From a candidate division FCPU426 bacterium (GTDB lineage: Bacteria; Oederibacteriota; Muellerivitia; Muellerivitales; Muellerivitaceae): DNA of 64,000 nt. Positions within the stretch are counted from its first letter, which is position 1. Every line of letters begins with the position of its first letter. Location of the stretch: positions 15,186-79,185 of the forward strand of contig CAWHOE010000042.1 in NCBI GenBank assembly GCA_963830915.1. Reading direction: 5' to 3'. The notes below the pieces were generated by a model, which was given only the letters and a program-made list of their open reading frames with translations, had not been told where the DNA came from and made no database searches. The translations under genes were made by a program, and so were the position numbers. This document shows, in pieces, positions 2 to 16,691 of the stretch.

Positions 2-1174
2 TACATCATGATTATCGACAAATCCCAATCGTATAAGACCCTTTGCCGCTTGGCGGGTGGCCGGTATCTCAACTACGACCTGGACAGCAAACATCACCTG
101 AATATTTTCGATTATCCCTTGGATGAGATTAAAGAGAAGGAAGGGGAGATCGACCCGGAGCATATTTCCAGCATCATCATGTATTTGGGGGTGGTGCTCG
201 CCAACATCAAGGAAAACCGTATCGAGGAAACGGAGGAATTGGACAAGGCACTGATTCAGGAAGCCGTCAAGCAGACCTACCTGAACACCCTCACTGAGAA
301 CCGGGTGCCTCTTTTAACCGACCTCAAGGAAACACTCTTGAAGAAAGCGGAGGACAAGAAAGTTCCCGCCGAGTTCCAATATCTCTGCCGCAAACAAGCA
401 GAAGTCTTAAAACTTTTCACCGGAAAGGGGATGTACGCCAACCTGACGGACAGGGAATCCACCATCAAAGCGGACAATTCATTCATCGTTTTCGACACGT
501 CAGGCATCAGCGACAACGACAAGAAGGCCGTGGGTTTGGCCGTATTCGTCATTTCCAATTACTGTCTTCAAAAGGCAAAACAGAACAAGGAATTGAACCG
601 GCTCTCCCAACTCGCCATGGACGAGTGCTGGTATTTGGCCCAATACCCGGCTGGTTTAGCTTTCCTTCTTAGAATCGCCAAGACCGCAAGGCATTTGAGA
701 CTTCAACCTATTTTCGCCACCCAGGAAATTGGGGAGTTTTTCGGGGTGAAGGGTGTTGAGGCGATCCTGAAGAACACATCAACCAAAATCCTCCTGAAGC
801 TGGTAGGGGACGACATTGAACACGCCAAAGGCCTGCTCCAATTGAATCCGACCCAAGTGGAAAAGGTCATGAATCTCCATTTGGTAAAAGGAGTCTATTC
901 CCAAGCCCTCATCCACCAGACCCTTCGGCAGGGAATCGTGAATATCTACCCCGACGAATTGGCCTACCACATCGCCACCACTTACGGGCCTGAAGCGGCA
1001 ATCCGTGACCTCTATCTGGACACTTACGCGCCGGATGAGGACCCGGTAGCGACTTTGGGAGCCATCGCCAAGTGGATAGAGGACAAGGAAAACAAAACGG
1101 TTTTAAAACCCACCCAAAAGGATAAAACCGGCCAAACGAGTTCGAAAAAACCGGACGAGGTATTAATGAAATGA
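2..1174 (+). CDS. Conjugative type IV secretion ATPase, VirB4/TrbE/TraC-like, C-terminal part (5' end lies outside window)
   Basis: Frame open from window edge; motifs MDECWYL (DEAW-type Walker B), IFATQ and basic RK segment typical of VirB4-family C-terminal ATPase domain. Confidence 0.6.
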   Translation, partial: YIMIIDKSQSYKTLCRLAGGRYLNYDLDSKHHLNIFDYPLDEIKEKEGEIDPEHISSIIMYLGVVLANIKENRIEETEELDKALIQEAVKQTYLNTLTENRVPLLTDLKETLLKKAEDKKVPAEFQYLCRKQAEVLKLFTGKGMYANLTDRESTIKADNSFIVFDTSGISDNDKKAVGLAVFVISNYCLQKAKQNKELNRLSQLAMDECWYLAQYPAGLAFLLRIAKTARHLRLQPIFATQEIGEFFGVKGVEAILKNTSTKILLKLVGDDIEHAKGLLQLNPTQVEKVMNLHLVKGVYSQALIHQTLRQGIVNIYPDELAYHIATTYGPEAAIRDLYLDTYAPDEDPVATLGAIAKWIEDKENKTVLKPTQKDKTGQTSSKKPDEVLMK

Positions 1175-1767
1175 CTGAACCGAAAAAGGAGGATGAACAT
1201 TCCATTCTTGACCTCATTGAGCAGGAGCCAAAGAAAAAGGGATACACCGGGAAAATCATCATTGGACTCATTGTGGCCGTGGTTGGTTTGGGTTCCACCC
1301 TCTTTTGGGGAAAAACCGCCCAAGTTGTTGATTCAAAGAAGGATGTTTCTGTGGGTAGTTCCCAAACGGTGGGGAAAGACCCCCAATACGGGGACGTAAC
1401 CGACTTCGCGGAGAAGTTCAGCATTATGGCTTTCAACATTAGTTATACGGACATCAACCATCAGGTGGACAAGGTGGCGGGTCTTATGAGTGACAACATG
1501 ATGTCCTATTACCAGGAAGCTTTTTTGGACCCCAAGTGGGTCGCCTTTCTATCGGATAACAAAGCTTATGTCTCCTACCAGCAGATCGACCGGTCGAGCG
1601 TGGAGAACACGGACGGGACCCATTACTGGGTGAAGGTTATCGGGAAGAACCTTTACAACTCGGATGCCAGGGGCCAAGGGTCACAGATTGAATTGCCTTT
1701 CCATTTAGTCGTAGTGGTCAAGAAGGACAACGGAAAACTTATTGTGACGGATTTCCAGAGGTTTTAG
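1171..1767 (+). CDS. Membrane-anchored conjugation-associated protein (single N-terminal TM + periplasmic domain; VirB8/TrbF-like layout, family not certain)
   Basis: ATGA overlap with upstream ATPase gene; TM segment IIIGLIVAVVGLGSTLFW; no catalytic motifs. Confidence 0.3.
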   Translation: MTEPKKEDEHSILDLIEQEPKKKGYTGKIIIGLIVAVVGLGSTLFWGKTAQVVDSKKDVSVGSSQTVGKDPQYGDVTDFAEKFSIMAFNISYTDINHQVDKVAGLMSDNMMSYYQEAFLDPKWVAFLSDNKAYVSYQQIDRSSVENTDGTHYWVKVIGKNLYNSDARGQGSQIELPFHLVVVVKKDNGKLIVTDFQRF

Positions 1768-1769
1768 CC

Positions 1770-3242
1770 ATGGAAGAGAATGTACTTCAAATCAACCCGG
1801 AATTAGCCAGGCGGTGCCTTCAGTCCGCCCATTTGTGCATGGAAACAAACCGGTTCAAAGAAGCCTTGAAGCTTTTTGACGAGATAATCGGAAAACACCA
1901 GCCTCAGAACGTGGAAGCTCACCTGGAATCCGCGAAGATATACGCCATATACAAACAGCCTAATTCCATCCTCAAAGTGATTAACCGGCTTCATAATTTT
2001 TCCCAGAAGACTCCGGAAAGCCTCGTTCTTCTTGCCCGCGCCCAACTTCAGATGAGCCTCTATTCCGATTGTCGGGAAAGTCTAAGGGAGATTTTTACCA
2101 TACAGAGGGATTTTCCTGAGGCAGTGGCTTTGGAGGGGGAATTGTGCATTAGGACGGCGAAATATGAAAGCGCCGTCGAGAAGTTCGAGTCCTTAAGCCT
2201 CCGTTATCCCAAAAATTACAACTATTTGACTTTCCTGGCCGTTTCCCATTTTGCCAGCGGCAAATTCCACCGGACCATCACCCTTTGTACCACCCTCATG
2301 CAAGCAGGGGTTTCAGACCCCAAAATCACCCGGCTTTATGAAATGGCGAAAACAAAAAGACGGCACGAGGCCTTGGGAAAGCTGAAAAAAGTAAAACCAC
2401 TCAAATGGCTGTTTGCCCAACTCTTCGATCCATTCCTGGAAAAGGAAATGAGGGCCGAATCGGAAAGCCAGACCACCCAGGAGGATCTTGTTCAGGAAAC
2501 CTTAGTGGACCACAGGACCGGCCTTTTGAACGATAGGGCGGCGATGCTGCAAATCCCAGCCCTTGCCGCCAGGAGAAAGAACCACTTTTACGTTGCCATG
2601 GCTGATATAGACTTTTTCAAATCCTTTAACGACGTCCATTACAACCACCAGGTCGGAAATTCCGTCTTGAAAGCCTTGGCAAAGGCGGGACAACAAATCT
2701 TCACCAAAAACAAAATTTGGCGTTACGGCGGTGAGGAAATCGTCTGGGTTCTGGACGGGTCAGAAGCCGAAGTCGTCGAAAAAGCCGAACAGTTCAGGAA
2801 GCAATGCGAGGAAAAAGTCGTGGGGGAAGCGAATGATATCAACCAAAAGGAGGACATCCGGCACTTCACGGACGGGTTGGACCATAAGAAGGACGACCCG
2901 TTCCTTATCCATTACCCGGTGACGATCAGCCAGGCCGTTGTGGAATGGGGGGAAGACGGGACAAATCTGGAAGGAATCCTAACGGCGGCGGATCACGGCC
3001 TTTACACGGCTAAGGAAGGCGGAAGGAACACGGTTGTTTTCCGGGGAACCCCCAGGTGCGTTGGGCTCAAGCCGGTCAAGTACACCCCCGAGATGCTTGG
3101 AATCCTTCACAAGTTTAGCGTCAAGAAAGGGTCCTCAAACTGGTGGGCCTATTTGGAGACTGTCGATGAGAAGGCGAAAAACGATGCTTTGGAATATGCC
3201 AGGAACACACTGGCCGACATGGAGGCGTTAAAGAAAAAATAG
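1770..3242 (+). CDS. TPR-like helical N-terminal domain fused to GGDEF (diguanylate-cyclase-like) domain, active-site variant GGEEI
   Basis: DHRTGLLN, FYVAMADIDFFKSFND, RYGGEEIVWVL, AADHGLYTAKEGGRN are GGDEF-family hallmarks. Confidence 0.75.
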   Translation: MEENVLQINPELARRCLQSAHLCMETNRFKEALKLFDEIIGKHQPQNVEAHLESAKIYAIYKQPNSILKVINRLHNFSQKTPESLVLLARAQLQMSLYSDCRESLREIFTIQRDFPEAVALEGELCIRTAKYESAVEKFESLSLRYPKNYNYLTFLAVSHFASGKFHRTITLCTTLMQAGVSDPKITRLYEMAKTKRRHEALGKLKKVKPLKWLFAQLFDPFLEKEMRAESESQTTQEDLVQETLVDHRTGLLNDRAAMLQIPALAARRKNHFYVAMADIDFFKSFNDVHYNHQVGNSVLKALAKAGQQIFTKNKIWRYGGEEIVWVLDGSEAEVVEKAEQFRKQCEEKVVGEANDINQKEDIRHFTDGLDHKKDDPFLIHYPVTISQAVVEWGEDGTNLEGILTAADHGLYTAKEGGRNTVVFRGTPRCVGLKPVKYTPEMLGILHKFSVKKGSSNWWAYLETVDEKAKNDALEYARNTLADMEALKKK

Positions 3243-3279
3243 TTTCGCATTGGTCATTAATTTCAAAAGGAGAAAGAAC

Positions 3280-3621
3280 ATGGGTTTAAAAGTCAGGATT
3301 ACCAGGATGTTTCCCTATGACGGGGAACACACGAAGGCTTTTGTTGGAGCCAAAGTCCAGATATCCGGTCGTGTTTTTGGTTACAACGAATTGACGCTCG
3401 TTAAAAAGAAAGAAGGGAATGGTTTGTTCCTGGGCCTTCCTTCTCGGCCTGGAAGGCAGGAGGGGGAGTATCACGATATTTGTTACATGGACGCGAACAC
3501 GCGAAAAGATATTGAGAAAGTCGCAATCGCCGAGTACGAGAAGAAAATCAAGGAAAGCGCACAGGTGCCCATAGGGGATAACCAAGGAGTGAGGGTAGAA
3601 CGGAGAAAAGTGAAAAGGTGA
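3280..3621 (+). CDS. spoVG: SpoVG-family nucleic-acid-binding regulator (paralog 1)
   Basis: NGLFLGLPSRPGRQEGEYHDICYMDANTRKDIE matches SpoVG core ([25 protein letters not shown]); RBS aaaggag upstream of ATG 3280. Confidence 0.7.
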   Translation: MGLKVRITRMFPYDGEHTKAFVGAKVQISGRVFGYNELTLVKKKEGNGLFLGLPSRPGRQEGEYHDICYMDANTRKDIEKVAIAEYEKKIKESAQVPIGDNQGVRVERRKVKR

Positions 3622-3652
3622 CGGGCGAAATAAAAATCAATGGAGGCAACAA

Positions 3653-3955
3653 ATGGCTTTAAAGATCAGTGTCACTAGGATGTATCCCTATGAAGGGGAG
3701 AATACCCAGGCGTTTTTCGATGTTAAGGTCGCAATATCGAGTTACGAGTTCTTCTTCAACGACCTAACTTTGGTGAAGAAGAAGGATGGCGATGGGTTAT
3801 TTGTGGGTTTCCCATCCAGGCCGGGCAAAAAGGATGGGGAGTATTTCCACTTCTGCAACGCCAACAAGAAAGCCAAGGAAGAGATCGAAAAGGCGGCTGT
3901 TGCGGAGTTTAAAAAGAAATCCAAGGCCAAGGAAACCGCCCCAGCCAAGGAATAA
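3653..3955 (+). CDS. spoVG: SpoVG-family protein (paralog 2) with Lys/Ala-rich tail
   Basis: DGLFVGFPSRPGKKDGEYFHFCNANKKAKEEIE; tandem with paralog 1. Confidence 0.7.
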   Translation: MALKISVTRMYPYEGENTQAFFDVKVAISSYEFFFNDLTLVKKKDGDGLFVGFPSRPGKKDGEYFHFCNANKKAKEEIEKAAVAEFKKKSKAKETAPAKE

Positions 3956-3977
3956 TCCAGGGGTTTTGGAGAGAAGA

Positions 3978-4241
3978 ATGGAAGACAGGAGAAGATGGGA
4001 CCGAAGAAGAAAGGCCCAGGATTGCCTGATGTCAGATAGTCAAATAGCCGATTTGGCGGGGGTTTCCAAACACACCGTTAAATTTTGGCGTCTGGCTGGG
4101 ACCATCCCTTATGTGAAGGTTGGGCGTCACCCGAGGATTTGGCTTTCGGCCTTCCAAAAAGTTTTCCATCAACCTGATCCAAGCGGACCTTGGGAATTGT
4201 CCCCTAAGTTTGGTAAAATACCAAACGGCAAGGGACATTAG
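3978..4241 (+). CDS. xis: Excisionase / AlpA-Xis family helix-turn-helix DNA-binding protein
   Basis: SQIADLAGVSKHTVKFWRLAGTIPYVKVGRHPRIW is an excisionase-type HTH; sits immediately 5' of integrase. The listed ORF 3786-4241 overlaps SpoVG in another frame, so the shorter start is preferred. Confidence 0.55.
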   Translation: MEDRRRWDRRRKAQDCLMSDSQIADLAGVSKHTVKFWRLAGTIPYVKVGRHPRIWLSAFQKVFHQPDPSGPWELSPKFGKIPNGKGH

Positions 4242-4249
4242 GAGGCAGT

Positions 4250-5320
4250 ATGAGCAAGCCTAATGTTCACGGATTGCCCCAACATCTTCGGAGAGATGAA
4301 GGGGGATATTTCCTGGATTTTTTTGTCCAGGAAGAAGGGGTTAAAAAACGTAAAAGGGTGCGTTTGGGACAGATACCTTTGCCTCAGGCAAAGAAGGTCT
4401 TGGCCCAACACATGCAAGAGATCGTTGAAAACAGTTATTTGGCGCAGGATAAGCCGAAGATCACTTTCAACGAAGCCGCCGATTCCTTTATGGATTATTC
4501 GGTGTCCAGGAAGAAAAGTTTTCATAGGGATAAGTATTACGTGGCAAACCTAAAGGCGTTTTTCGGTGACAAGCCTTTGGACAGCCTGAATCTTGACCTT
4601 GCGGAAAAATATCTGACCTGGAGAAGGAAAACCGGAAAACCCAAAGGGGAGGAGATGAAGGCGGCCACGCTCAACCGGGATATTGCCTGCTTAAAAACCA
4701 TCGTGAATAGGGCGAAGTTAAACAGGCAGATTGACAGGAATCCAATCGAGGGGATCAGGTTGTTTAAGGAAATCCCCAGGGATAGGACACTTACCCCGGA
4801 AGAGTTTAAGCAACTCTTGGAATGCTGCCCGCCCCACCTTAAATCAATGGTCGAGTTGGCTTATTACACGGCCATGAGAAAGGGTGAAATCCTAGGGCTA
4901 AGATGGGAACAAGTGGATTTCCAAAAAGGGGTTATTTTTCTTGAGGCGGAGGATACGAAAACTCAAGAAAAGCGGGAAATACCAATTGATGAGAAATTGA
5001 AGCAAATCATCAAGAAGATTCCCAAGACCTTAGGAAGCCAGTTAGTTTTCACTTACAAAGGAAAAAGGCTAACGGCTTGCAGGACCGGGTTTAAAAGCGC
5101 TTGTGAAAAGGCCGGATTGGGAAATTTCCATTTCCACGACCTTCGTCATTGTGCGATAACGAATATGCGCAAAGCGGGGGTGCCGGATTCGGTCATAATG
5201 AGTGTTAGCGGACACAAAACTAACGCGGTATTTCGGCGATATGACAAGATTGATAGGGAAGACCGAAAATTGGCGTTGGAGCGGGTCCGGGAGTTCAATG
5301 ACACCAAGTTTGGAAGCTGA
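4250..5320 (+). CDS. int: Tyrosine site-specific integrase (phage integrase family), copy 1
   Basis: C-terminal catalytic motifs HDLRHCAI, SGHKT, VFRRYDK (R-H-R-Y tetrad); N-terminal SAM-like domain. Confidence 0.9.
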   Translation: MSKPNVHGLPQHLRRDEGGYFLDFFVQEEGVKKRKRVRLGQIPLPQAKKVLAQHMQEIVENSYLAQDKPKITFNEAADSFMDYSVSRKKSFHRDKYYVANLKAFFGDKPLDSLNLDLAEKYLTWRRKTGKPKGEEMKAATLNRDIACLKTIVNRAKLNRQIDRNPIEGIRLFKEIPRDRTLTPEEFKQLLECCPPHLKSMVELAYYTAMRKGEILGLRWEQVDFQKGVIFLEAEDTKTQEKREIPIDEKLKQIIKKIPKTLGSQLVFTYKGKRLTACRTGFKSACEKAGLGNFHFHDLRHCAITNMRKAGVPDSVIMSVSGHKTNAVFRRYDKIDREDRKLALERVREFNDTKFGS

Positions 5321-5501
5321 TTGACACGGGAATGACAAACGCCCTTTTCTGGGCGGGGAAGGAGAGGGATAAAAGTTCGTTTTCCGCTTTAGCTGTAAGG
5401 GTTTTAGAAGATTTAAGAAGAGAAGATCAAGCCAACCATTGCGACCCTCAAAATCTATCGGGAGCAATCCCATGTCGGTTCAAGTCCGACCTCGGGCACC
5501 A
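5321..5501 (+). mobile_element. Integrase-distal junction: conserved int-downstream segment ending in a 30-nt tRNA 3'-end fragment (att core) ...ATGTCGGTTCAAGTCCGACCTCGGGCACCA
   Basis: T-arm GTCGG-TTCAAGT-CCGAC + acceptor 3' strand CTCGGGC + A + CCA. No matching 5' acceptor strand upstream, so fragment only. Same segment repeats at 14474-14654. Confidence 0.6.
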
Positions 5502-5550
5502 ATTTTCTTTTTTCGTTCAACAAAAAAGCTAAAAAATAATTTTTCCTGTG

Positions 5551-5579
5551 AACTTCCGAACTTGTCGGAAGTTTTTTTG
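5551..5579 (+). terminator. Rho-independent terminator
   Basis: AACTTCCG-aacttgt-CGGAAGTT followed by TTTTTT. Confidence 0.6.
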
Positions 5580-5843
5580 TTTGTGTCAATGGCCCTCCCA
5601 ATTGCGAATGACACGCATATGACAAGAATTTCGAAAGAAAAATCTATTGAGGTTATGTGTTTCGGAAAACATTTGTTTTGGGCGTGTAATTAAAAATTAT
5701 TCCCTACAAGACCATAGGGCTCAGTAGACTTTCTGTAACGTGTGCTGGTCGATTTTTTCCCTAATAAGCTTGTCAATTATGCTTGTGCGAAATTAGAATT
5801 TTTATGTTTGCATCTAAAGTTCTTTCGGGTAAAGGACAACGTA

Positions 5844-6107
5844 ATGAGAACTAAGGGATGTAGAAAACTAGGGGCCAAACTATTGACTGTTGGGTTGAAT
5901 TCTGGAAAAGCGGAGCTGTTCCAGGAAGCGGTTGTGGAAATAGTAGAGCAACTTGGTGGGGTTGAAGCCTTTGCGAAGAAAGCGAAAATGTCGGTACGGG
6001 AATTGAAAAGGGCCTTAGCTAGTCGAGAGGCCTTTCAAAGATGGGTGGATATAGCCAAGGTGGTAAAGGCTCTGAGTGAAAGCCGGATGGCATTTTATGC
6101 AAAATGA
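5844..6107 (+). CDS. Hypothetical small protein, possible HTH/antidote-like
   Basis: ORF with RBS; weak resemblance to addiction-module antidote proteins (GGVEAFAKKAKMSVRELKRAL). Confidence 0.3.
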   Translation: MRTKGCRKLGAKLLTVGLNSGKAELFQEAVVEIVEQLGGVEAFAKKAKMSVRELKRALASREAFQRWVDIAKVVKALSESRMAFYAK

Positions 6108-6156
6108 GCAAAATTTCCCGCTATTCAGGATATAACAATAATGTTATATTTAATCC

Positions 6157-6504
6157 ATGAAGGTTGATCTGTTTAGAAGTTCATCGGGGCGGTCGCCCGT
6201 TGAGGATTTTATCAGTAACCTTTCTAAAGAGGATCAGGCCCTTTTTAAGACTATCCATGACGGGATAGAGCGGGAAGGCTTGAAATATCCATACGTTATT
6301 TTCAAACCCTTAGAAGGGAAGCTCTGGGAGATCAAATTTAAGGGTTTGGACGGTTCTTACCGGATTGGCTATGTTTTGGTGACGGGGCCAAAGATGTTTT
6401 GGCTTCATGTTTTTAAAAAGAAAACGCAGAAGATATCCAGGCTGGACTTTGAGTTGGCCTGGAAGCGGATGAAGGAGATTTTGGAATATGAAAAAAACTC
6501 ATAA
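6157..6504 (+). CDS. RelE/ParE-superfamily toxin, phage Gp49-like / HigB-type
   Basis: About 115 aa, Gp49-like (DUF891) composition; 17-nt overlap with downstream XRE-HTH gene. Confidence 0.55.
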   Translation: MKVDLFRSSSGRSPVEDFISNLSKEDQALFKTIHDGIEREGLKYPYVIFKPLEGKLWEIKFKGLDGSYRIGYVLVTGPKMFWLHVFKKKTQKISRLDFELAWKRMKEILEYEKNS

Positions 6505-6802
6505 ACCCTACACGGACGGAAAAGCCTTTTTCCACAAGTTGGAAAAAGACCCTGAAATTCGTATTTTGGTAAAACAGCAAGAAGAAAAGTTTCGCCTTGC
6601 CACTGCGATCAAAAGAGCCCGAGAACATGCAGGATTAAGCCAAGTTGCTTTGGCTAAGAAAATTGGAACCAAACAAAGCGCAATTTCTCGTGCGGAAAGC
6701 GGTGTTTACCGCTCGGTGCCTTCCTTGAGTTTCCTACAGAAAATTGCGGCGGCCTGCGGGGCTCATTTAGGCATTACATTTGATTTCCGTAAGGCCAGTT
6801 AG
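6488..6802 (+). CDS. XRE-family HTH antitoxin (HigA-like)
   Basis: AREHAGLSQVALAKKIGTKQSAISRAESG is a canonical XRE helix-turn-helix; toxin-then-antitoxin order as in HigBA. Confidence 0.6.
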   Translation: MKKTHKPYTDGKAFFHKLEKDPEIRILVKQQEEKFRLATAIKRAREHAGLSQVALAKKIGTKQSAISRAESGVYRSVPSLSFLQKIAAACGAHLGITFDFRKAS

Positions 6803-6934
6803 TATTTCATCGGCCTTCTTTTCCTTGAGCCCCAAAGCCCGCAAAGAGTGTACGCCATTAGTTTGGACGATGAATAAAGTCAATGATCTTATTCATTGGA
6901 CCCCGATTTAAAAAGAGTATAATAAATTCAACCT

Positions 6935-6987
6935 AAGGGGATGGAGTTCTCCCAAAACCGCCAATTCAATTGGACGATGACTCCTAC
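6935..6987 (+). promoter_or_regulatory. Fluoride riboswitch (crcB RNA motif) aptamer
   Basis: GGGGAUGGAGUUCUCCC-AAAACCGCC-...-ACGAUGACUCCUAC matches conserved GGnGAUGGnGUUCnCC / AAACnGC / AUGAnUCCUAC blocks of the crcB motif; TATAAT-like box at about 6915-6922. Confidence 0.85.
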
Positions 6988-7030
6988 TGCATGATGAAAC
7001 ATGCGGTGGGGCCATGTACTAACAAGTCAA

Positions 7031-7056
7031 ACCCGCCGCCCGGCGGGTTTTTTTAT
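7031..7056 (+). terminator. Intrinsic terminator forming the riboswitch expression platform
   Basis: ACCCGCCGCCCGGCGGGT followed by TTTTTTT, lying between aptamer and first ORF. Confidence 0.7.
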
Positions 7057-7098
7057 TTCCCGCCCTTTCATCCTGCAAGTAAATCTTGGAGGCGGGAT

Positions 7099-8316
7099 AT
7101 GACCCACGTTTGGGCGGAAGCTACGTTGTGGATCGGGTTGGCGCTGGTCGCAGTACTCATTTCCATCTGGCTAAAAATTGCCACAGCCTTATCGGAGATT
7201 GTGGTCGGTACGGTGGCACAACTGGTAATCGGGGCCTTAGTAGGTCAGGCTTTTTTAGGCACAAGCGAAAGTTGGATTACCTTCTTAGCGGGTGCGGGCT
7301 CCATCGTTCTGACTTTCCTGGCTGGGGCCGAGCTGGACCCGGTGGTGTTCAAGGCCAAGTGGAAGGAAGCTTCGCTTTTGGGGCTGGTGGCTTTTTTCGC
7401 TCCTTTCCTGGGATGCACGGCAGCCGCCTTTTACCTGCTTCACTGGAATCCTCAGGCCTCTTGGCTGGCTGGCGTAGCCCTTTCCACCACCTCCGTGGCG
7501 GTAGTTTATGCCGTGATGCTGGAACTCGGATTAAACAAGACCGAATTCGGAAAAATCATCTTGGCCGCCTGTTTTATCAATGACCTTGCTACGGTCATCG
7601 CGCTTGGGCTTATCTTCGCGCCATTTACCCTCAAGACTCTCGTCTTCGTGGGTGTCAGCGTTCCTGTCTTTTTTATCCTTCCTTGGCTTACACCCCGGTT
7701 CTTTAAATTGTATGGTGACCGTCCCTCGGAATTGGAAACCAAATACCTCTTGTTCCTCATGTTTGGACTGGGGGCTTTGGCGACTTGGGCCGATAGCGAA
7801 GCAGTTCTTCCGGCCTACCTTATTGGAATGGTTTTGGCAGGAACAGTCGGCAAAGACCATGTCTTGGTACGCCGCTTGCGAACCGTAACTTTTGGACTGC
7901 TGACGCCGTTTTATTTCATTCGGGCAGGTTCCTTCGTATCAGTTCCCGCCCTGGTGGCCGCTCCCCTGGCTTTCGTGGTCCTGCTTTTGGCAAAGATGGG
8001 AAGTAAGTTTGTGGGTGTTTTTCCCGTCACGAAATACCAGGGTTATGCCCATAAAGAAGGAATGTACACAACCCTTCTGATGTCCACGGGGCTCACCTTT
8101 GGCACCATTTCAGCATTGTTTGGATTATCACACCACGTTATCGACCAAACCCAATATTCGTTTTTGGTGGCTACCGTTATTTTGAGTGCGGTAGTGCCGA
8201 CGCTTATCGCCAACGCCTATTTCTTACCGCACTATCTTTTGCCTAAAGTCCACAAACCTGAGGCTGAAGTCGTTCCATTGGCCCCAAATAACTCAGAAAA
8301 CGGAGGCGCTTTATGA
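7099..8316 (+). CDS. Cation:proton antiporter (CPA1/CPA2-type Na+/H+ exchanger)
   Basis: About 12 TM helices; family-typical glycine-rich helices; GGAGG RBS 6 nt upstream of ATG 7099. The listed ORF start at 6970 would run through the riboswitch terminator. Confidence 0.8.
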   Translation: MTHVWAEATLWIGLALVAVLISIWLKIATALSEIVVGTVAQLVIGALVGQAFLGTSESWITFLAGAGSIVLTFLAGAELDPVVFKAKWKEASLLGLVAFFAPFLGCTAAAFYLLHWNPQASWLAGVALSTTSVAVVYAVMLELGLNKTEFGKIILAACFINDLATVIALGLIFAPFTLKTLVFVGVSVPVFFILPWLTPRFFKLYGDRPSELETKYLLFLMFGLGALATWADSEAVLPAYLIGMVLAGTVGKDHVLVRRLRTVTFGLLTPFYFIRAGSFVSVPALVAAPLAFVVLLLAKMGSKFVGVFPVTKYQGYAHKEGMYTTLLMSTGLTFGTISALFGLSHHVIDQTQYSFLVATVILSAVVPTLIANAYFLPHYLLPKVHKPEAEVVPLAPNNSENGGAL

Positions 8317-8732
8317 TTCCCCAAAAAATCCTGGTGGCATTTGATGGTTCGATCCATTCCGAGAAATCTTTTCAATATGCCCTTGAGACGGCTAAACGTT
8401 TTCAGGCTTCCTTGTTAGTGCTTTCCGTTGCCCCGATTCCAGAATTTGACATCGCTGTAGAGATGGAATCGGTGTTGGAATCCGCCCAAGAGCATTTCGA
8501 GGAGCAATTCAAGGATCTGAAAAAAAAGGCCGAAGTGGCTGGGGTTTCCTTGACTACGGAGGTCGTGGTTGGTCATCCCGCCGAACACATCATCCGAAAA
8601 GCAATTGATGAAAAAATCGATTTGATCGTTGTGGGTCATCGGGGCAAGAGCAAGATTGGCGAATGGCTCTTAGGATCGGTAGCTAAACGCGTTTCTAGCT
8701 ATGCTCCCTGTGCGGTCACGATAGTACGATAA
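8313..8732 (+). CDS. uspA: Universal stress protein UspA family
   Basis: ILVAFDGS...IVVGHRGKSKIGEWLLGSVAKRV ATP-binding Usp motif; ATGA overlap with antiporter. Confidence 0.8.
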   Translation: MIPQKILVAFDGSIHSEKSFQYALETAKRFQASLLVLSVAPIPEFDIAVEMESVLESAQEHFEEQFKDLKKKAEVAGVSLTTEVVVGHPAEHIIRKAIDEKIDLIVVGHRGKSKIGEWLLGSVAKRVSSYAPCAVTIVR

Positions 8733-8744
8733 AGGAGGCTGATA

Positions 8745-9125
8745 GTGAGCTTAAGCCAGTTTTTTTTCATCGTCACTGGTGCGTCCATCGGGGCTTTGAG
8801 CCGTTTTGGTTTAGGTCTATGGGTGACCGCTAAATTAGGGTCGAATTTCGCTTATGGTACTTGGTTTATCAATTTGATCGGATCTTTTGTACTGGGATTA
8901 TTTTTGACCCTTCACTTGGACAGGGGATTGTTCCATCCTAATGTTCGATATTTCGTGGCTGTCGGATGGTGTGCTTCCTTTACCACTTATTCGACCTTCA
9001 GTTGGGAGACTTTCCGGTACTTCCAGGAAGGAGACTTTATGAGGGCGGGTTTGAATGTCACCTTGACCTTGGTAGGTTGTTTTTTGGCTTCATGGGGCGG
9101 TGTTGTTGTGGCAAGACTGTTGTAA
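8745..9125 (+). CDS. crcB: Fluoride ion channel CrcB/FluC
   Basis: GALSRF...GTWFINLIGSF...TTYSTFSWE motifs of Fluc family; 4 TM; GTG start with AAAGGAGG RBS. Confidence 0.85.
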   Translation: MSLSQFFFIVTGASIGALSRFGLGLWVTAKLGSNFAYGTWFINLIGSFVLGLFLTLHLDRGLFHPNVRYFVAVGWCASFTTYSTFSWETFRYFQEGDFMRAGLNVTLTLVGCFLASWGGVVVARLL

Positions 9126-9143
9126 AAAGAAGGAGGGCTCAAT

Positions 9144-9515
9144 ATGGACGTTATAGGTAAATGCAAGGTACTCCGCGTTTATGTGGACGAAGAACTGAAG
9201 TGGAAAGGCAAACTCCTTTACAAAGCTATCGTGGATCGGTTGTTGGCGGAAAAAGTGACCGCTGGTGCGACGGTCTTCAAGTGTGTAGAGGGCTTTGGGT
9301 CTTCTTCACATCTTCACACCAGTCGTATCATTGAAGTCATGGAAGAATTGCCCATGATCATCGAAATAGTGGACAAGCCTAATCGAGCCTTGAAGGCCCT
9401 GAACATTATCGAGGAAATGCTTCCAAACCATTGCTTGGTGACAGTTCATGAAACCCAGGTGCTTCATTATCACAAGGCGGACGGCAAGCATACCAAGACG
9501 AAGAAGTGGAAATAA
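9144..9515 (+). CDS. DUF190 (PII-like) protein commonly found in fluoride-riboswitch regulons
   Basis: VLRVYVDEELKWKGKLLYKAIVDRL...GATVFKCVEGFGSSSHLHTSRIIEV...PMIIEIVD matches DUF190 consensus. Confidence 0.8.
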   Translation: MDVIGKCKVLRVYVDEELKWKGKLLYKAIVDRLLAEKVTAGATVFKCVEGFGSSSHLHTSRIIEVMEELPMIIEIVDKPNRALKALNIIEEMLPNHCLVTVHETQVLHYHKADGKHTKTKKWK

Positions 9516-11224
9516 AAATGAAGGATTTTCCGGGTCAGGATGGCAATTCCACGCCAAGCCTCCCGAATGATTCTCGGACTATTTTTACTGAAGCGGGGGA
9601 TATCCTGTCATTTGCGGATTCCATCGCCCGCCGCTGGGGTATTTCAGTTCTTCTACCTCAAATCTATAATTTATCCGAATTTATAAATGAATCCGATTCC
9701 GTGGATGTGGTCTTGTTGGGAAGATTCAAGGCGGGAAAAAGTTCAATCTTGAACGCCTTATTGGGCAGGAATATTTTTCCGGTCGATGTCCTGCCGGCAA
9801 CTGCGGTCATAACCCGCGTGTCCGGCGGGTTGACTGATCACGTGAGTGTTTTGTACAGGGACGGGCACTTGGAAACGGTGCCCTTGAGTGAAATTAAAGA
9901 ATATGTCACCGAAAGGGGAAACCCCCAAAATATCAGGAAAGTCGTTAGGGTTGAAGTTCGTGCGACTGGCTTGCGATCTTTTGGCGGGATTCGGTGGGTG
10001 GATTCGCCTGGTCTCGGAAGCCTGCATGCAAGCAACACCGAAGCGACTTTGGATTGGCTCCCTAGGGTGGGAGCTGCCCTGGTGGCGGTAGCCGTGGATC
10101 AGCCTCTTGGCGAAGAAGATCGGGTTCTTCTTCGCAAACTGGAGGAACAAACCCCGTTTATTGTGATTCTTTTAACTAAGGCCGATCTAATATCTGGAGA
10201 ACAATTGGAATCGGTCGTTCAATATGTCGATTCGCAATTGACAGAGAATTTTGAGAGGGAATTGCCAGTTTTTCCCGTTTCAACCCGACCTGGGTACGAA
10301 GAATCCGTTTCAAGACTTAAAAACAGCCTCCAAGCCAGACTTGGAGGGAACCGCACCAGTGAAGAAAACAAGATTATCCTCTACAAATTAGAAGCCATCC
10401 TGAAAAACTGCCGGGGTTACCTGGGGCTTTCACTCCGAGCCGCCCGTTCCGGGACTTTATCCGGGACGAAGCTTTCCCAAGCCATTGAAGAGGAATGGGT
10501 CTTCCTTTCCACTTTAGAGGATAATTTCCATCTGGTGGTGGATCAGTCAAGTCGTCGAATCCGGGAGTCTCTTGAGAGCTGTTTCGTTTCAAAGTCGCAG
10601 GAGTTGACCCGTAAGCTCCAAAGGGAATTGAAAGAGAAACTTTTGGGTTGGCGGGGAAATTTAGCCGAGGAAAGCAGGTGGTTTCAGGAATGGCTCGATT
10701 CCCAGTTGGTTTCCGAGTTGGACCGATTGGGCCGGGAAAACCAGGATGTTTGGAAGGTCCATGTCCGGAAAGTGGAGGGCGGTCTCAACCGGGATCTCCA
10801 GGCCTTTGGGGACCGGATTTCGATCAAAATTAAGGAAGCCCTTCAATACGAATACGCCGGGACTTCCTTTGAGGCAAAGTCGACCCCTTTGGAAAAGCCA
10901 AGCACCCATCTTGACAGGGTATTTGATACGCCCTTTGAAATCATATGGTTCCTAATTCCAATGCCGGTCTTCCGGGTTCTGGTTCACAGGCATTTCATCA
11001 ATTCCTTGCCGTGGCAGGTCGAAAAACATCTTTACCGTTTATCGTCGGAATGGACGGAGAGAATCATGGATTCCATCCAGGGAATGATGGAAAAGGCCGG
11101 AAAGCATGTTCGGGACGAGTTGGAGTCCCTCGCGAACCTTTTGAAGGAAAGGATGGATGCAAGTGGAAGTATTGAGAAAGATTTGGGCCGATTAGGCGAG
11201 TTGGAGAGTTTAATCCGTTTATGA
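9506..11224 (+). CDS. Dynamin-family large GTPase (bacterial dynamin-like protein)
   Basis: G1 GRFKAGKSSILNALLG, G3 DSPG, G4 TKAD; long helical stalk; start overlaps DUF190 stop (alternative ATG at 9518). Confidence 0.75.
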   Translation: MEIKMKDFPGQDGNSTPSLPNDSRTIFTEAGDILSFADSIARRWGISVLLPQIYNLSEFINESDSVDVVLLGRFKAGKSSILNALLGRNIFPVDVLPATAVITRVSGGLTDHVSVLYRDGHLETVPLSEIKEYVTERGNPQNIRKVVRVEVRATGLRSFGGIRWVDSPGLGSLHASNTEATLDWLPRVGAALVAVAVDQPLGEEDRVLLRKLEEQTPFIVILLTKADLISGEQLESVVQYVDSQLTENFERELPVFPVSTRPGYEESVSRLKNSLQARLGGNRTSEENKIILYKLEAILKNCRGYLGLSLRAARSGTLSGTKLSQAIEEEWVFLSTLEDNFHLVVDQSSRRIRESLESCFVSKSQELTRKLQRELKEKLLGWRGNLAEESRWFQEWLDSQLVSELDRLGRENQDVWKVHVRKVEGGLNRDLQAFGDRISIKIKEALQYEYAGTSFEAKSTPLEKPSTHLDRVFDTPFEIIWFLIPMPVFRVLVHRHFINSLPWQVEKHLYRLSSEWTERIMDSIQGMMEKAGKHVRDELESLANLLKERMDASGSIEKDLGRLGELESLIRL

Positions 11225-11269
11225 GCCGGTTTTGGCATTGGGCGTTCATTACTTTTAAGGAGAAGTTAA

Positions 11270-12544
11270 ATGGCAAAGATATCCTCGGTTAAGGCAATGG
11301 AAATTTTGGACTCAAGGGGAAACCCGACAGTGAGGGTTTGGGCGGAATTGGAAAGCGGCGTGAAGGTTTCAGCTTCCGTGCCTTCCGGCGCTTCCACGGG
11401 AGAAAACGAAGCGGTAGAGCTTCGGGACGGGGACAAGAAACGCTTCGGCGGGAAAGGGGTCCTGAAAGCCGTTGAGAACGTGAACAAGGTGATTGCCTCG
11501 GCTATCAAGGGAATGGATGCGGAGCGGCAGGCGGAGTTGGACCGGCGCATGATCGAGTTGGATGGCACTCCCAACAAGGCCAAATTAGGGGCCAATGCCA
11601 TCCTGGGGGTTTCCATGGCGGTGGCGCGGGCGGCGTCGGTCGAAGCCGAAATTCCCCTTTATTCATATCTTGGAGGAACGGGAGCCGTAAGGCTTCCAGT
11701 TCCCCAGATGAACATCCTCAATGGGGGTAAGCACGCGGACAACAGCGTTGACTTCCAGGAATTCATGGCTATGCCGATAGGCGCTCCCAATTTTACAGAA
11801 GCCCTTCGGTGGGGGGCCGAGGTTTTTCATGCCTTGAGGGGTATCTTGCACCAAAAGAAATATGCGACGGGGGTGGGGGATGAGGGTGGTTTCGCGCCGA
11901 ATTTAAAAAGCAATGAGGAGGCTGTGGAGGTGATTGTCCAGGCCATCGAGGTGGCGGGCTATAAGCCGGGCAGGGATGTCGCCATAGCACTGGACCCTGC
12001 GGCCAGTTCCTTTTACGAGAAAGGGGTTTATGCACTGACCAAGTCAGGGCAAGGGAACAAATCCAGCAAAGAAATGACCGAACTTTACAAGGGATGGGTT
12101 GAGAAATTTCCCATTGTTTCCATCGAGGATGGGTTGGATGAGAACGATTGGGATGGTTTCAAGGAACATACGGCGGTCCTGGGGGGCAAGATCCAGATTG
12201 TTGGGGATGACATTTACGTTACGAACACGAAGTTTATCGCTCGTGGCATCAAAGAAAAAACCACCAATTCAGTACTGATAAAGCTCAACCAGATTGGTAC
12301 GGTCACGGAAACTATTGAGGCTATTCAACTCTGCCGCAAGGCTGGGTGGAGTTATGTCATCTCCCACAGGTCGGGGGAAACCGAGGACGCCTTCATGGCG
12401 GATTTCGCGGTCGCCATGGGGGGTGGACAGATCAAGACCGGATCGGCTTGCCGGAGTGAAAGAATCGCTAAGTACAACCGTCTCTTGGAAATAGAAGCCG
12501 AATTAGGCAAATCTGCGGTCTTCGGTAATCCATTCAAGGAATAG
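11270..12544 (+). CDS. eno: Enolase (phosphopyruvate hydratase)
   Basis: Full-length enolase signature ([31 protein letters not shown]). Confidence 0.95.
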
Positions 12545-12554
12545 GGGAAGGCCT

Positions 12555-13226
12555 TTGGAAAAACACACTCCATACTTCAAGGTTTTGGAAACCATTCAAA
12601 AAAGCCGGGATTGCGGGTTGTGTGTTCTGGAAAAGGGAGCGGTTCATTCCTATTTTGAGGCATTCCTTTACGAGAATGTGAATGACCATGGTGCCCGCGA
12701 AGCCTTGCGGGCTTCCAGGGGTTGGTGCCCGTTTCATGCACACCACTTGATTGGATTCCACGACACCCTTGCACTTTCCATCCTCTTCAAAGAACAGGCG
12801 CTCCTTGCCGGGTATTTTCTTGAGAAACAGATGGAGAAAACACACTTCTTTTCAGAATGGGTCAGCCATGCAAAGTGTCCTGCGTGTATCCAAACCATAC
12901 AGATACGACAGCATTACCTTGCTATCTTGGTGAAGGGATTAATAGAGGAAGAGGAAATGCGTTCGGCTTTTTTTGGGAATTTTCATGTCTGCCTCAATCA
13001 TTTTATGTTGGTAGTGGACGCGCTGTCGGACGATGCCTTCAAGAGGCAATTGGTGGACCGGATGTGGCAACGCCTAGCCGATTTGGCTGGACGACTGGAA
13101 CAATATTGCCAGGACTGCCAGATAAACGCGGCGGGTGAAACTTTCGATTCACCCCACCGCTATGCTTGGAAGGAAGCTGTTGAGACAGTTGCCGGGTTGA
13201 AAGACGTTTTCGAGTCGCCGTTGTAA
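12555..13226 (+). CDS. Cys-rich hypothetical protein (CGLC, WCPFH, CPAC, CLNH, CQDC motifs; metal-binding candidate)
   Basis: ORF immediately after eno, same strand; paired CxxC motifs. Confidence 0.45.
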   Translation: MEKHTPYFKVLETIQKSRDCGLCVLEKGAVHSYFEAFLYENVNDHGAREALRASRGWCPFHAHHLIGFHDTLALSILFKEQALLAGYFLEKQMEKTHFFSEWVSHAKCPACIQTIQIRQHYLAILVKGLIEEEEMRSAFFGNFHVCLNHFMLVVDALSDDAFKRQLVDRMWQRLADLAGRLEQYCQDCQINAAGETFDSPHRYAWKEAVETVAGLKDVFESPL

Positions 13227-13402
13227 TAAGACCCGTTATCGTTTTTGGTTCCCAGAACCCCATAAGTTTTTTCGGGAGATCATCAAAGGAAAAGAAAAAG
13301 TGAGGTGGGGGTGTTACTTCCTATGCCCCTAGGGAAAGTTGCTTTTGAATCTATCCTCAATCCTGGTAAAATGCCAAACAGCAAGGGACATTAGGAGGCA
13401 GT

Positions 13403-14473
13403 ATGAGCAAGCCTAATGTTCACGGACTTCCCCAACATCTTCGGAAAGATAGCGGGGGATATTTCCTGGATTTTTTTATCCAGGAGGAAGGGGTTAGTAA
13501 ACGTAAAAGAGTGCGGTTGGGACAGATTCCTTTGCCTCAGGCAAAGAAGGTCTTGGCTCAACACATGCAAGAAATCGTTGAAAACAGTTATTTGGCCCAA
13601 GAAAGGCCGAAGATCACTTTCAACGAAGCCGCTGATTCCTTTATGGCTTATTCGGTGTCCAGGAAGAAGAGTTTTCATAGGGACAAGTATTACGTGGCAA
13701 ACCTTAAGTCTTTTTTTGGTGACAAGCTTTTGGAGAGCCTGAACCTTGACCTTGCTGAAAAGTATTTAACTTGGAGAAGGAAAACCGGAAAACCCAAAGG
13801 GGAGGAAATGAAGGCGGCAACGCTCAACCGGGATATTGCCTGCTTAAAGACGATTATTAATAGGGCGAAGTTAAACAGGCAGATCGACAGGAATCCAATC
13901 GAGGGGATCAGGTTGTTTAAGGAAATCCCCAGGGATAGGACCCTAACCCCGGAGGAGTTCAAACGGCTTTTGGAATGCTGTCCTTCCCACCTGAAATCAA
14001 TGGTCGAGTTGGCTTATTACACGGCCATGAGGAAAGGTGAAATCCTAGGGATGAAATGGGATCAGGTAGATTTCCAAAAAGGGGTTATTTTTCTTGAGGC
14101 GGAGGATACGAAGACTCAGGAAAAGAGGGAAATACCGATTGATGAGAAATTGAAGGAAATCATCAAAAAGATTCCCAAGACCATAGGAAGCCCGTTTGTT
14201 TTTACCTATAAAGGGAAAAGGCTAACGGCTTGCAAGACCGGGTTCAAAAACGCTTGTCAAAAGGCTGGATTGGGAAATTTCCATTTTCACGACCTTCGCC
14301 ATTGCGCAATCACGAATATGCGCAAAGCGGGGGTGCCGGATTCGGTCATAATGAGCGTCAGCGGACACAAAACCAACGCGGTTTTCAGGCGATATGACAA
14401 GGTGGATAGGGAAGACCGAAAATTGGCGTTGGAGCGGGTCCGGGAGTTCAATGACACCAAATTCGGGACCTGA
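13403..14473 (+). CDS. int: Tyrosine site-specific integrase, copy 2 (about 89% identical to copy 1)
   Basis: Same motifs as 4250-5320; homology begins about 30 nt upstream of ATG (ggtaaaatRccaaacRgcaagggacattaggaggcagtATG). Confidence 0.9.
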   Translation: MSKPNVHGLPQHLRKDSGGYFLDFFIQEEGVSKRKRVRLGQIPLPQAKKVLAQHMQEIVENSYLAQERPKITFNEAADSFMAYSVSRKKSFHRDKYYVANLKSFFGDKLLESLNLDLAEKYLTWRRKTGKPKGEEMKAATLNRDIACLKTIINRAKLNRQIDRNPIEGIRLFKEIPRDRTLTPEEFKRLLECCPSHLKSMVELAYYTAMRKGEILGMKWDQVDFQKGVIFLEAEDTKTQEKREIPIDEKLKEIIKKIPKTIGSPFVFTYKGKRLTACKTGFKNACQKAGLGNFHFHDLRHCAITNMRKAGVPDSVIMSVSGHKTNAVFRRYDKVDREDRKLALERVREFNDTKFGT

Positions 14474-14654
14474 ATGACACGGGAATGACAAACGCCCTTT
14501 TCGGGGCGGGAAAGGAGAAGGAAAAAAGTTCGTTTTTCGCTTTAGCTGTAAGGGTTTTAGAAGCTTTAAGAAAACAAAATCAAGCAACCCATTGCGACTC
14601 TCAAAATCTATCGACCTCACGGTCATGTCGGTTCAAGTCCGACCTCGGGCACCA
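14474..14654 (+). mobile_element. Second copy of int-downstream segment ending in the same tRNA 3' fragment (att core 14625-14654)
   Basis: ATGTCGGTTCAAGTCCGACCTCGGGCACCA identical to 5472-5501; flanks diverge immediately after CACCA. Confidence 0.6.
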
Positions 14655-14684
14655 AATTTCTCCAATTTAAAATATATTATTGAA

Positions 14685-14920
14685 AATTTGGTTGTGCTTG
14701 GACGTAGTCCAAGTACACCATTTATCTTCAATTCTGTGTGGTTGTACCCAGACGACCTGCCTGCCGGAACTTTAGTGAAGGCAGGAGTCTGGGTGCACCA
14801 ATTACATTTGGTTGTGCTTGGACGTAGTCCAAGTACACCAATTTTCGTCTTTGATGAGTGGTTGTACTCAGACGACCCGCCTGGCGTAACTTTAGTGAAG
14901 GCAAGAGTCCAAGCGCGCCA
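14685..14920 (+). repeat. Two tandem copies of a 120-bp repeat, each with a GC-rich hairpin (CTTGGA-cgtag-TCCAAG) and a long nested stem-loop (ACCCAGAC-GA-CCTGCC-[14 nt]-GGCAGG-A-GTCTGGGT) ending GCACCA
   Basis: Period 120 nt (ggttgtgcttgg at 14691 and 14811), about 88% identity between units. Confidence 0.7.
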
Positions 14921-16631: not shown

Positions 16632-16691
16632 ACCGCCTGCCGGAACTTAGTGAAGGCAGGAGTCTGGGTGCACCATGAATTGGTTGTGCTT
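16632..16691 (+). repeat. Third (partial) copy of the 120-bp repeat hairpin, CCGCCTGCCGGAACTTAGTGAAGGCAGGAGTCTGGGTGCACCA + TGAATTGGTTGTGCTTT
   Basis: Near-identical to 14757-14812; together with 14685-14920 brackets the AbiE cassette. Confidence 0.7.

Follow-up and report, generated by a model that had tools for sequence, protein, structure and literature searches.

How a set of fluoride-tolerance genes comes to lie between two integrase genes, and why a gene for a dynamin-like GTPase should be found among them, are the questions raised by a locus of an uncultured candidate division FCPU426 bacterium. The locus is part of a stretch of 64,000 nucleotides (assembly GCA_963830915.1, contig CAWHOE010000042.1, positions 15,186 to 79,185), which is termed the window here and to which coordinates refer unless a contig is named. 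An earlier note, made from the letters of this stretch, had proposed a horizontally mobile fluoride-tolerance island. In our analysis the segment 5447-14599 is, with high confidence, a 9,153-bp site-specific integrative island located at a tRNA-Leu(CAA) gene and carrying a fluoride-riboswitch operon. Within the window it forms the second unit of a tandem array and follows an element A that resembles an integrative and conjugative element (ICE).

The operon begins with an aptamer of the crcB motif. On the + strand an Rfam scan matches family RF01734 over model positions 1-64 with 49.0 bits against a gathering score of 34 (E 1.6e-10), and this is the sole Rfam family above its curated threshold in the whole window. 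The covariance model and a terminator hairpin (7029-7050, followed by a U-run) bear out the crcB-motif aptamer and terminator read by the earlier note, whose start at 6935 lay in the right region but cut 7 nt off the aptamer. A promoter-like site upstream contains a perfect TATAAT that ends 4 nt ahead of the aptamer match; the site is missing from a consensus promoter scan, because its -35 hexamer TTGGAC agrees at only three of six positions. The aptamer ends 105 nt before the antiporter start codon (ATG 7099), which is preceded by a Shine-Dalgarno-like GGAGG, and a switchable platform thus lies in the 5' untranslated region of fluoride-related genes.

Within this platform, the strand GCGGUGGGG (approximately 7003-7011) has two alternative partners, either the aptamer 3' strand or, as an antiterminator, the 5' arm of the terminator. 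In an unconstrained fold of 6928-7075 (z = -3.2 versus shuffles) the aptamer 3' strand CCUACUGCAUG pairs with CAUGCGGUGGG (about 7000-7010), and the terminator forms, which is the top-ranking terminator-like hairpin within 5400-14800. When the stretch from 6928 to 6984..6992 is sequestered as a mimic of the ligand-bound pseudoknot, GCGGUGGGG pairs with CCCGCCGC in the terminator 5' arm, and the terminator hairpin is lost. The predicted device is a transcriptional ON switch, the usual logic for the family, and fluoride binding by 6928-6993 would be expected from family membership. Without fluoride, the aptamer 3' strand would pair with 7000-7011 and the terminator would form; with fluoride, the aptamer would retain its 3' strand, the freed GCGGUGGGG would pair with the terminator 5' arm, and RNA polymerase would read through.

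Seven co-directional genes follow the riboswitch, with intergenic gaps of -4 to 45 nt and identities assigned by Pfam and NCBIfam profile matches (Table 1). The packed, co-directional antiporter, UspA, CrcB, DUF190 and enolase genes described previously were all recovered by Pfam profiles. The dynamin-like and Cys-rich (DUF6062) genes indeed belong to the same unit, but they do not both come last, as the dynamin-like gene lies between DUF190 and enolase. CrcB scores 86.8 bits against Pfam PF02537 (cut-off 32.9), and its translation shows the motifs GALSR and TTYSTF. As judged from these families, CrcB would export fluoride, the CPA2 antiporter would offset cytoplasmic acidification from the entry of hydrogen fluoride (HF), and the extra enolase would be a second, inducible copy that stands in for the fluoride-inhibited enzyme, with Usp and DUF190 as the usual accessory proteins. 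The GTPase, which resembles IniA and the bacterial dynamin-like protein BDLP, would remodel or repair the cytoplasmic membrane under fluoride stress, perhaps together with DUF6062.

The limits of the island are set by tRNA sequence. The window encodes two 356-aa tyrosine integrases, A and B, which are 93% identical as proteins; in B the catalytic R, HxLRH, H and Y motifs are present in the alignment as MRKGE, HDLRH, SGHK and FRRY. The att-like repeats noted earlier at 5501 and 14654 are the ends of an exact 25-mer pair, GGTTCAAGTCCGACCTCGGGCACCA, which occurs exactly twice (chance expectation 0) and can be refined to the T-arm/acceptor end within two 3' halves of tRNA-Leu(CAA). The 25-mer is the tail of a 1.3-kb duplication (4211-5508 versus 13364-14661; about 92% DNA identity; spacing 9153), which comprises the integrase gene and the DNA 3' of it. 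Its last 55 nt are shaped as a tRNA 3' half, with the anticodon loop CTCAAAA, the 3' strand of the anticodon stem, a long variable arm, T-arm, acceptor strand and CCA; a whole tRNA was not found in the window by ARAGORN. The earlier picture of a unit between two integrase copies holds in that both integrases are real, but the upstream one belongs to the other element and not to the island.

The repeat copies differ by compensatory changes in the variable arm, GGGAGCAATCCC (variant A) versus GACCTCACGGTC (variant B). In seven aligned junctions variant A always precedes the island left end, and the variant after integrase B varies by contig, being B in the window and in the comparison contigs L001 and L005, and A in contig L092. 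Hence, the tRNA 3' half travels with the DNA downstream of it and is supplied by the element, as predicted by a crossover at or near the anticodon loop, which yields the unit of approximately 5447-14599. A crossover at the tRNA 3' end (T-loop/acceptor) was rejected, since the variable-arm variant goes with the downstream DNA and not with the integrase arm. The island would recombine at or near the anticodon loop of tRNA-Leu(CAA), and as it carries its own tRNA 3' half, the tRNA gene stays intact. Repeats of the form WTGACAMR flank the att core (5321/5332, 14474/14485 and 5582(-)/5608/5619), and 11 of their 18 matches in the window are no farther than about 400 bp from one of the two att copies; judged by sequence and position, they may be arm-type integrase sites.

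From left to right the island comprises the tRNA 3' half, an open reading frame (ORF) of 87 aa, a HigB/HigA-like pair, the promoter-like site and riboswitch, the seven-gene operon, the tyrosine integrase and its arm. The 87-aa ORF has no Pfam or NCBIfam match, and the Gp49/HTH_3 pair probably keeps the island stable as an addiction module. An interpretation as prophage or satellite was set aside: structural or replication genes are absent from the island, and Gp49 denotes a HigB-type toxin family.

The island locus is not fixed, as both its left and its right neighbours differ among independent assemblies. Contigs with the island were found via exact look-up of the enolase and integrase B proteins in public assemblies. 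Over island sequence L001, L004, L005, L006 and L092 are 99.7-99.99% identical to the window, L002 99.0% (over a span including part of element A) and L003 95.6%; a wider set of L001, L002, L004, L005, L006 and L092-L099 covers 99.0-100%. All contig matches to the window end at 14654-14661, and homology breaks in the tRNA-Leu(CAA) anticodon loop (5447) and just beyond the tRNA fragment (14661). To the right of 14661 lie an AbiEi/AbiEii pair and 120-bp repeats in the window, unrelated genes in L001/L093, and the left end of a third element (about 90% similar) in L002, L005, L092, L096 and L099; in L004 and L098 a group II intron splits this left end. This third element keeps the 87-aa/Gp49/HTH module and carries a different cargo, in L005 a sigma-54 activator.

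On the left, integrase A adjoins the island in L002, L003 and L006, as in the window. In the 398,825-bp contig L092, genes for a resistance-nodulation-division pump and a pseudouridine synthase are followed by an intact tRNA-Leu(CAA) at 2013-2099, which is completed by the island's left end. There, the island starts within the anticodon loop (L092 2045 equals window 5447), with 99.89% identity over 9,215 bp. The 277-kb contig L106 and contig L143 show the same tRNA-island junction (100% and 99.98%, respectively). Direct tRNA-derived repeats thus bound the island at both ends, with an intact tRNA at the left end in L092, L106 and L143.

Unoccupied counterparts of the site are found in relatives. 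A tRNA core scan of JGI metagenomes yielded 51 loci, most of which retain the pseudouridine synthase-tRNA-Leu synteny and most of which carry variant B or other variants; B is the commonest variable arm in unoccupied tRNA genes. Variant A is restricted to loci with an element of this family after the tRNA (L106, L143 and L150). Where 4-8 kb of DNA downstream of the tRNA is available, that stretch contains no integrase or fluoride genes. In L107, L110, L124 and L145 the tRNA is followed directly by 2-3 kb homologous (73-81% at the nucleotide level) to the post-attR DNA of L001/L093, and the same homology extends over some 230-320 nt at 82-85% in L116, L122 and L142. The tRNA sites in these contigs are empty sites.

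The composition of the island also sets it apart, with a GC content of 0.48 and a third-position GC content (GC3) of 0.49-0.63 in its genes, compared to 0.57-0.62 and 0.69-0.83, respectively, in five host genes tested from the right part of the window. Taken together, near-identical copies in independent contigs with differing neighbours, empty sites and composition lend good support to the horizontal mobility proposed by the earlier note. Both checks that the note had suggested, on the covariance-model match and on synteny among relatives, speak for its reading.

The dynamin-like protein (DLP) of the operon belongs to a family that usually has a fluoride riboswitch upstream. It matches PF00350 Dynamin_N with 62.1 bits (cut-off 27), and it is covered by no NCBIfam model. 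The gene starts 2 nt after the DUF190 stop codon; a start at GTG 9506 was rejected, as its product gave no match in exact look-up, and the start at ATG 9518 gives a product identical to the protein P0001. In an alignment of 19 sequences the residues G68..K74 S75, D162 P164 G165 and T220 K221 D223 are invariant, the G1, G3 and G4 motifs are intact, and a hydrophobic segment, FEIIWFLIPMPVF, is conserved among homologues at the expected paddle or membrane-insertion region. The AlphaFold model (mean confidence score pLDDT 81.5) is matched best and in full length by IniA (6j72; Foldseek E 3.8e-18) and Nostoc BDLP (2j69/2j68; E 6e-17), followed by Campylobacter DLP1/2 and SynDLP, and a profile search of PDB sequences agrees. 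The model thus predicts a protein of the IniA/BDLP type with a helical neck/trunk fold.

An exhaustive HMMER search retrieved 407 representatives of 50%-identity clusters of this family at E <= 1e-30, and a scan of one genome per GTDB species found a relative in at least 531 genomes. Locus counts refer to the best 80 of these genome matches, which include FCPU426, NC10/Methylomirabilota, Goldiibacteriota, Sumerlaeota, Deferrimicrobiaceae, Syntrophales and other Desulfobacterota, as well as Acidobacteria, Planctomycetota, Gemmatimonadota, Thermoleophilia, Verrucomicrobiia, Spirochaetota and others. The nearest relatives (48-50% identity) are from FCPU426 metagenome-assembled genomes (MAGs). As to the host lineage, a P-type H+-ATPase was uninformative, with thousands of matches at 83-91% identity and a single named one among them (Thermoanaerobaculaceae). 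All five homologues with contigs looked up (38-49% identity) reside in a fluoride operon with an RF01734 match upstream, and in the FCPU426 MAG contigs L007 and L008 the DLP gene has its own riboswitch besides one ahead of the antiporter.

At the DLP loci, aptamers were searched on the + strand with a covariance model built from nine Rfam-confirmed aptamers, at a threshold of at least 34 bits. A riboswitch lies upstream of the DLP gene in 65/80 loci, and in 50/80 it is no more than 400 nt away from the DLP protein match; in eight of the loci, the Rfam model itself recovered all 11 hits (11 of 11) with identical coordinates. Known fluoride genes occur on the same strand within 5 kb in 41 of the 80 loci (antiporter 23, enolase 17, Usp 14, CrcB 11, DUF190 11). 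DUF6062 stands beside the DLP gene in 7-10 of the 80 (7 within 5 kb on the same strand), and the DUF6062 proteins of the FCPU426 relatives are 63-65% identical. Against a general association count the 15 loci without a strong upstream match, of which four have weaker matches at the right place and several are on contigs that end a short distance upstream.

On balance, we lean towards the view that this DLP family, as a rule under its own fluoride riboswitch, is an unrecognised core part of the bacterial fluoride response, which would imply membrane damage or remodelling and dynamin-type repair or fission, with DUF6062 as a lineage-specific partner. Damaged or stressed membranes are the site of action of IniA and DynA-type proteins, and fluoride enters cells as HF, acidifies the cytoplasm and lyses some bacteria. 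Fluoride-triggered lysis of S. mutans is described in one report (PMC12700350). Most simply, the DLP would serve membrane repair or remodelling alongside export, pH control and enzyme replacement. Alternatively, it might be a GTPase whose nucleotide state responds to metal-fluoride complexes, or it might handle the membrane transporters of the operon.

It is very improbable that, on a real island, the DLP and DUF6062 have nothing to do with fluoride and are passengers, such as a module for phage or envelope stress. Bacterial DLPs such as IniA, DynA and LeoA are known from antibiotic, phage and envelope-stress contexts and are not known to be linked to fluoride, and the scarcity of DUF6062 at DLP loci would suit such a module; yet the riboswitch stands upstream on the same strand in most DLP loci from many phyla, it is the nearest upstream element in 50/80, often without an intervening fluoride gene, and L007 and L008 devote an extra riboswitch to the DLP gene. 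In the window itself, the DLP gene follows DUF190 at a distance of merely 2 nt. In favour of passengers, too, literature linking dynamin-like proteins to fluoride or its riboswitch was not found in full-text searches, which did not cover Baker 2012 with its supplement or McIlwain 2021; the same kind of search gave no mention of DUF6062, and for the co-occurrence of crcB and dynamin it returned seven unrelated cell-biology papers. The preferred reading, a fluoride-responsive DLP family, would provide a defined chemical inducer where the physiological triggers of bacterial dynamin-like proteins are mostly obscure, together with dozens of natural cassettes of riboswitch and DLP gene to examine. 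It would also point to membrane damage in fluoride toxicity, beside the known enzyme inhibition and acidification.

Two arrangements at other DLP loci are recorded here. The FCPU426 MAG contig_18730 (L007, 24-1520) encodes a TPR-GGDEF protein like that of window 1770-3242 within a few kb of its DLP relative, and the FCPU426 module (riboswitch-antiporter and riboswitch-DLP-TPR-DUF6062) may be cargo of a related element. In MAG GCA_015075175.1 (L009/L020, 1030-4109) a separate fluoride riboswitch precedes two tandem genes with MutS_V domains, and a second one just downstream of these leads an operon of antiporter, Usp, CrcB, a DUF190-CBS fusion, DLP, enolase and a major facilitator superfamily transporter. 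The latter operon is a chromosomal counterpart of the island operon without an integrase.

Several points weigh against the island as drawn here. The sequences compared all come from metagenome contigs or MAGs, in which such repeats can interrupt an assembly or lead to chimeras, and several contigs terminate at the att/integrase repeat. Excisionase, relaxase, transfer and type IV secretion or coupling genes are absent among the island ORFs by Pfam and NCBIfam profiles. An unoccupied counterpart of the window's right flank (14662 onwards) was not found via AbiEii relatives; L100 and L101, which come closest (94-95% identical), break off about 350 bp and 240 bp ahead of AbiEi, with their first 460 nt and 348 nt, respectively, unrelated to the window. 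The 9,101-bp contig L095 is a circular permutation of the island, whose junction of integrase B and variant A-left end is the expected attP; either an excised circle or a tandem duplication would look like this. Finally, CrcB scores 78.4 bits against NCBIfam TIGR00494, slightly under the cut-off of 80.45, and fluoride induction and a resistance phenotype of the operon would follow from family knowledge.

The first of these points could be taken further, to the effect that the array and its varying contexts are assembly artefacts, in which contigs of different organisms were fused at the 1.3-kb integrase/tRNA repeat. We consider this very unlikely. Although all data are metagenomic, L001 and L004 end at the repeat on the left, and L100 and L101 end near the att region, the junction of integrase A and island recurs in four assemblies (window, L002, L003 and L006) across ENA, JGI and NCBI, and the tRNA-island junction in three (L092, L106 and L143). 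Moreover, the repeat copies differ at roughly one base in 12, which short-read assemblers can resolve, and the variable-arm variants segregate as a single crossover model expects.

A local segmental duplication that produced the two integrase/att copies around an ancestral, immobile fluoride operon is highly implausible and already contradicted. In its favour, the copies are co-oriented direct repeats at a spacing of 9,153 bp, and integrase A is the left neighbour also in L002, L003 and L006. However, the copies are about 8% apart in DNA, yet islands from different samples agree at 99.7-99.99%. In L092, L106 and L143 an intact tRNA-Leu and housekeeping genes, rather than integrase A, lie left of the island; right neighbours are of at least four kinds, the tRNA site is empty in relatives, and island GC3 is far under that of the tested host genes.

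For the integrative island, the route between cells has to be considered together with its neighbour. As neither an excisionase nor a transfer gene is present, autonomous movement between cells is only putative. A TraG-type ATPase is confined to element A, outside the island. Both integrases and their arms are closely related, and the island therefore most likely moves by excising with, or helped by, an ICE-like neighbour of this kind, i.e., its transfer would proceed by accretion and cis-mobilisation.

Table 1. Features of the island and of the adjoining part of element A (window coordinates).
Feature	Position	Strand	Basis or remark
Right-hand part of separate ICE-like element A	8..5446	+	profile matches
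TraG-type P-loop ATPase (element A)	8-1174		
TPR-GGDEF protein (element A)	1770-3242		
Two SpoVG-like genes (element A)			
HTH_17 Xis-like gene (element A)	~3978-4241		
Integrase A (element A)	4250-5320		
Island left end: 3' half of tRNA-Leu(CAA), CTCAAAA to CCA (ends 5501) plus 7 nt	5447..5508	+	variant A GGGAGCAATCCC; adjoins integrase A
WTGACAMR cluster, candidate arm-type integrase sites of left arm	5582..5626	.	inference
87-aa ORF, conserved at left end of element family	5844..6107	+	gene calls
Gp49/HigB-like toxin (6157-6504) overlapping HTH_3 antitoxin (6488-6802)	6157..6802	+	profile matches
Promoter-like site	6896..6923	+	TTGGAC, 16 nt spacer, -10 TATAAT at 6918-6923; read from sequence
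Fluoride riboswitch aptamer (crcB motif, RF01734)	6928..6993	+	Rfam
Expression platform	6994..7057	+	GCGGUGGGG; intrinsic terminator 7029-7050 and U-run
CPA2-type monovalent cation:proton antiporter (Na_H_Exchanger), 405 aa	7099..8316	+	Pfam, NCBIfam
Universal stress protein (Usp)	8313..8732	+	Pfam
Predicted CrcB/Fluc fluoride channel	8745..9125	+	Pfam
DUF190 (COG1993) protein	9144..9515	+	Pfam
Dynamin_N GTPase (DLP), 568 aa, IniA/BDLP type (predicted)	9518..11224	+	Pfam
Enolase	11270..12544	+	Pfam; TIGR01060 659 bits, cut-off 300
DUF6062 Cys/His-rich protein, repeated CxxC and CxxH motifs	12555..13226	+	Pfam
Tyrosine integrase B, island's own recombinase	13403..14473	+	PF00589 106.6 bits
Integrase-side arm of island, with WTGACAMR pair 14474 and 14485	14474..14599	+	
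attR: displaced 3' half of tRNA-Leu(CAA)	14600..14661	+	variant B ACCTCACGGT

Related elements were encountered on the comparison contigs. Sibling elements in L005 (7225-10864), L092 (11260-14300) and L150 (6234-9246) share the tRNA half, the 87-aa ORF and the Gp49/HTH module at 82-90% identity and vary in cargo (sigma-54 GAF activator; DUF6876/TPR), which points to small islands of one modular family, stacked at tRNA-Leu(CAA). The group II intron (L004 9521-11293 and L098 about 1500-3300; RF02003 domain match and a reverse transcriptase/GIIM ORF) is inserted about 116 bp past attR, inside the left end of the neighbouring element.

Further repeats and genes of the window lie outside the island. 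Two 120-bp tandem units (14686-14920) are 84% alike, and a partial third copy (16636-16700) lies beyond the AbiEi/AbiEii genes (14994-16552). An exact 29-mer, TTAGTGAAGGCAGGAGTCTGGGTGCACCA, is present both at 14772 and at 16647. In each unit ACCA follows a 10-bp hairpin and GCACCA follows a longer, bulged one, so that both look like tRNA acceptor ends. The repeats have no Rfam match even at a permissive threshold; perhaps they are what is left of another element, or its secondary att sites. Between genes, the window also has a dispersed repeat (24885, 27608, 56252, 62195, 62296 and about 30561), whose palindromic core is AAAGAGGTCGGTATAGTACCGATTTCC and whose copies lie in either orientation. 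It is shared with L100 and looks like a repetitive extragenic palindrome or miniature inverted-repeat transposable element (REP/MITE) or a shared operator. A gene for an ice-binding-like protein (PF11999) and tandem diverged PRC-barrel paralogues (repeats 64-75% identical) are found at 28138-28986 and 32440-34461.

Compared with known systems, the riboswitch and the core cargo make up a textbook fluoride regulon. The described regulon (RF01734; Weinberg 2010, PMC2864571; PMC11139923) features the same aptamer family and terminator-based ON platform, and its core cargo of CrcB/Fluc, Na+/H+ antiporter, enolase, Usp and COG1993/DUF190 recurs in the island. The island operon differs by the addition of the IniA/BDLP-like GTPase and DUF6062, which are unlisted in PMC2864571, PMC11139923 and PMC5533749. 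Weinberg 2010 (PMC2864571) lists mutS, K+/Cl- transport and formate hydrogen lyase, and a 2024 review of fluoride resistance (PMC11139923) covers exporters, antiporters, pyrophosphatase, HAD phosphatases, enolase and formate hydrogen lyase, and no GTPase.

A horizontally acquired fluoride island is likewise an already known kind, as the precedent of GI3 in Enterobacter cloacae FRM illustrates. GI3 resembles the present island in that a fluoride-riboswitch-controlled operon with crcB, eno and uspA was acquired horizontally, and in this case raised fluoride tolerance was demonstrated experimentally. In contrast to GI3, which has transposases at its flanks, the island uses a tyrosine integrase and tRNA-Leu(CAA). 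The cargo also differs, comprising ppaC, gpmA and a small ATPase fragment in GI3, and the CPA2 antiporter, DUF190, DLP and DUF6062 in the island, and so does the host lineage, which is uncultured for the island.

Tandem islands that target tRNA genes, as well as ICE accretion, are a well-known kind, too. The present island shares with them an integrase beside the att site, an identity block from the anticodon loop to the 3' end, restoration of the tRNA, a displaced 3' fragment as the distal repeat and the stacking of related elements at one tRNA. Crossover sublocations in tRNA genes were reportedly treated by Williams in 2002, and work on the Streptococcus ICESt3 and CIME is said to have dealt with the accretion of ICEs with cis-mobilizable elements (CIMEs). 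With an integrase of its own the island is not a bare CIME, and as relaxase, oriT and Xis are not recognised in it, it is not a typical ICE or integrative and mobilizable element either. The analysis adds the island anatomy, i.e., the tRNA-Leu(CAA) site, the proposed anticodon-loop crossover, the 9,153-bp unit, the tandem array and the empty sites, and the strong association of DLPs with the riboswitch, for which no report was found in the literature searched. Self-contained and site-specific, the island would be a natural vehicle by which uncultured bacteria of soil or sediment acquire fluoride tolerance, and it bears on how communities are shaped by fluoride and organofluorine stress.

The DLP, finally, shares the full-length fold, the G1-G4 motifs and the helical stalk with IniA (6j72), Nostoc BDLP (2j68/2j69) and Campylobacter DLP1/2 (5owv). 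With just 15-18% sequence identity to these proteins, it represents a separate family of about 400 50%-identity clusters. The family of the island DLP is associated with control by a fluoride riboswitch rather than by cell-wall drug stress.

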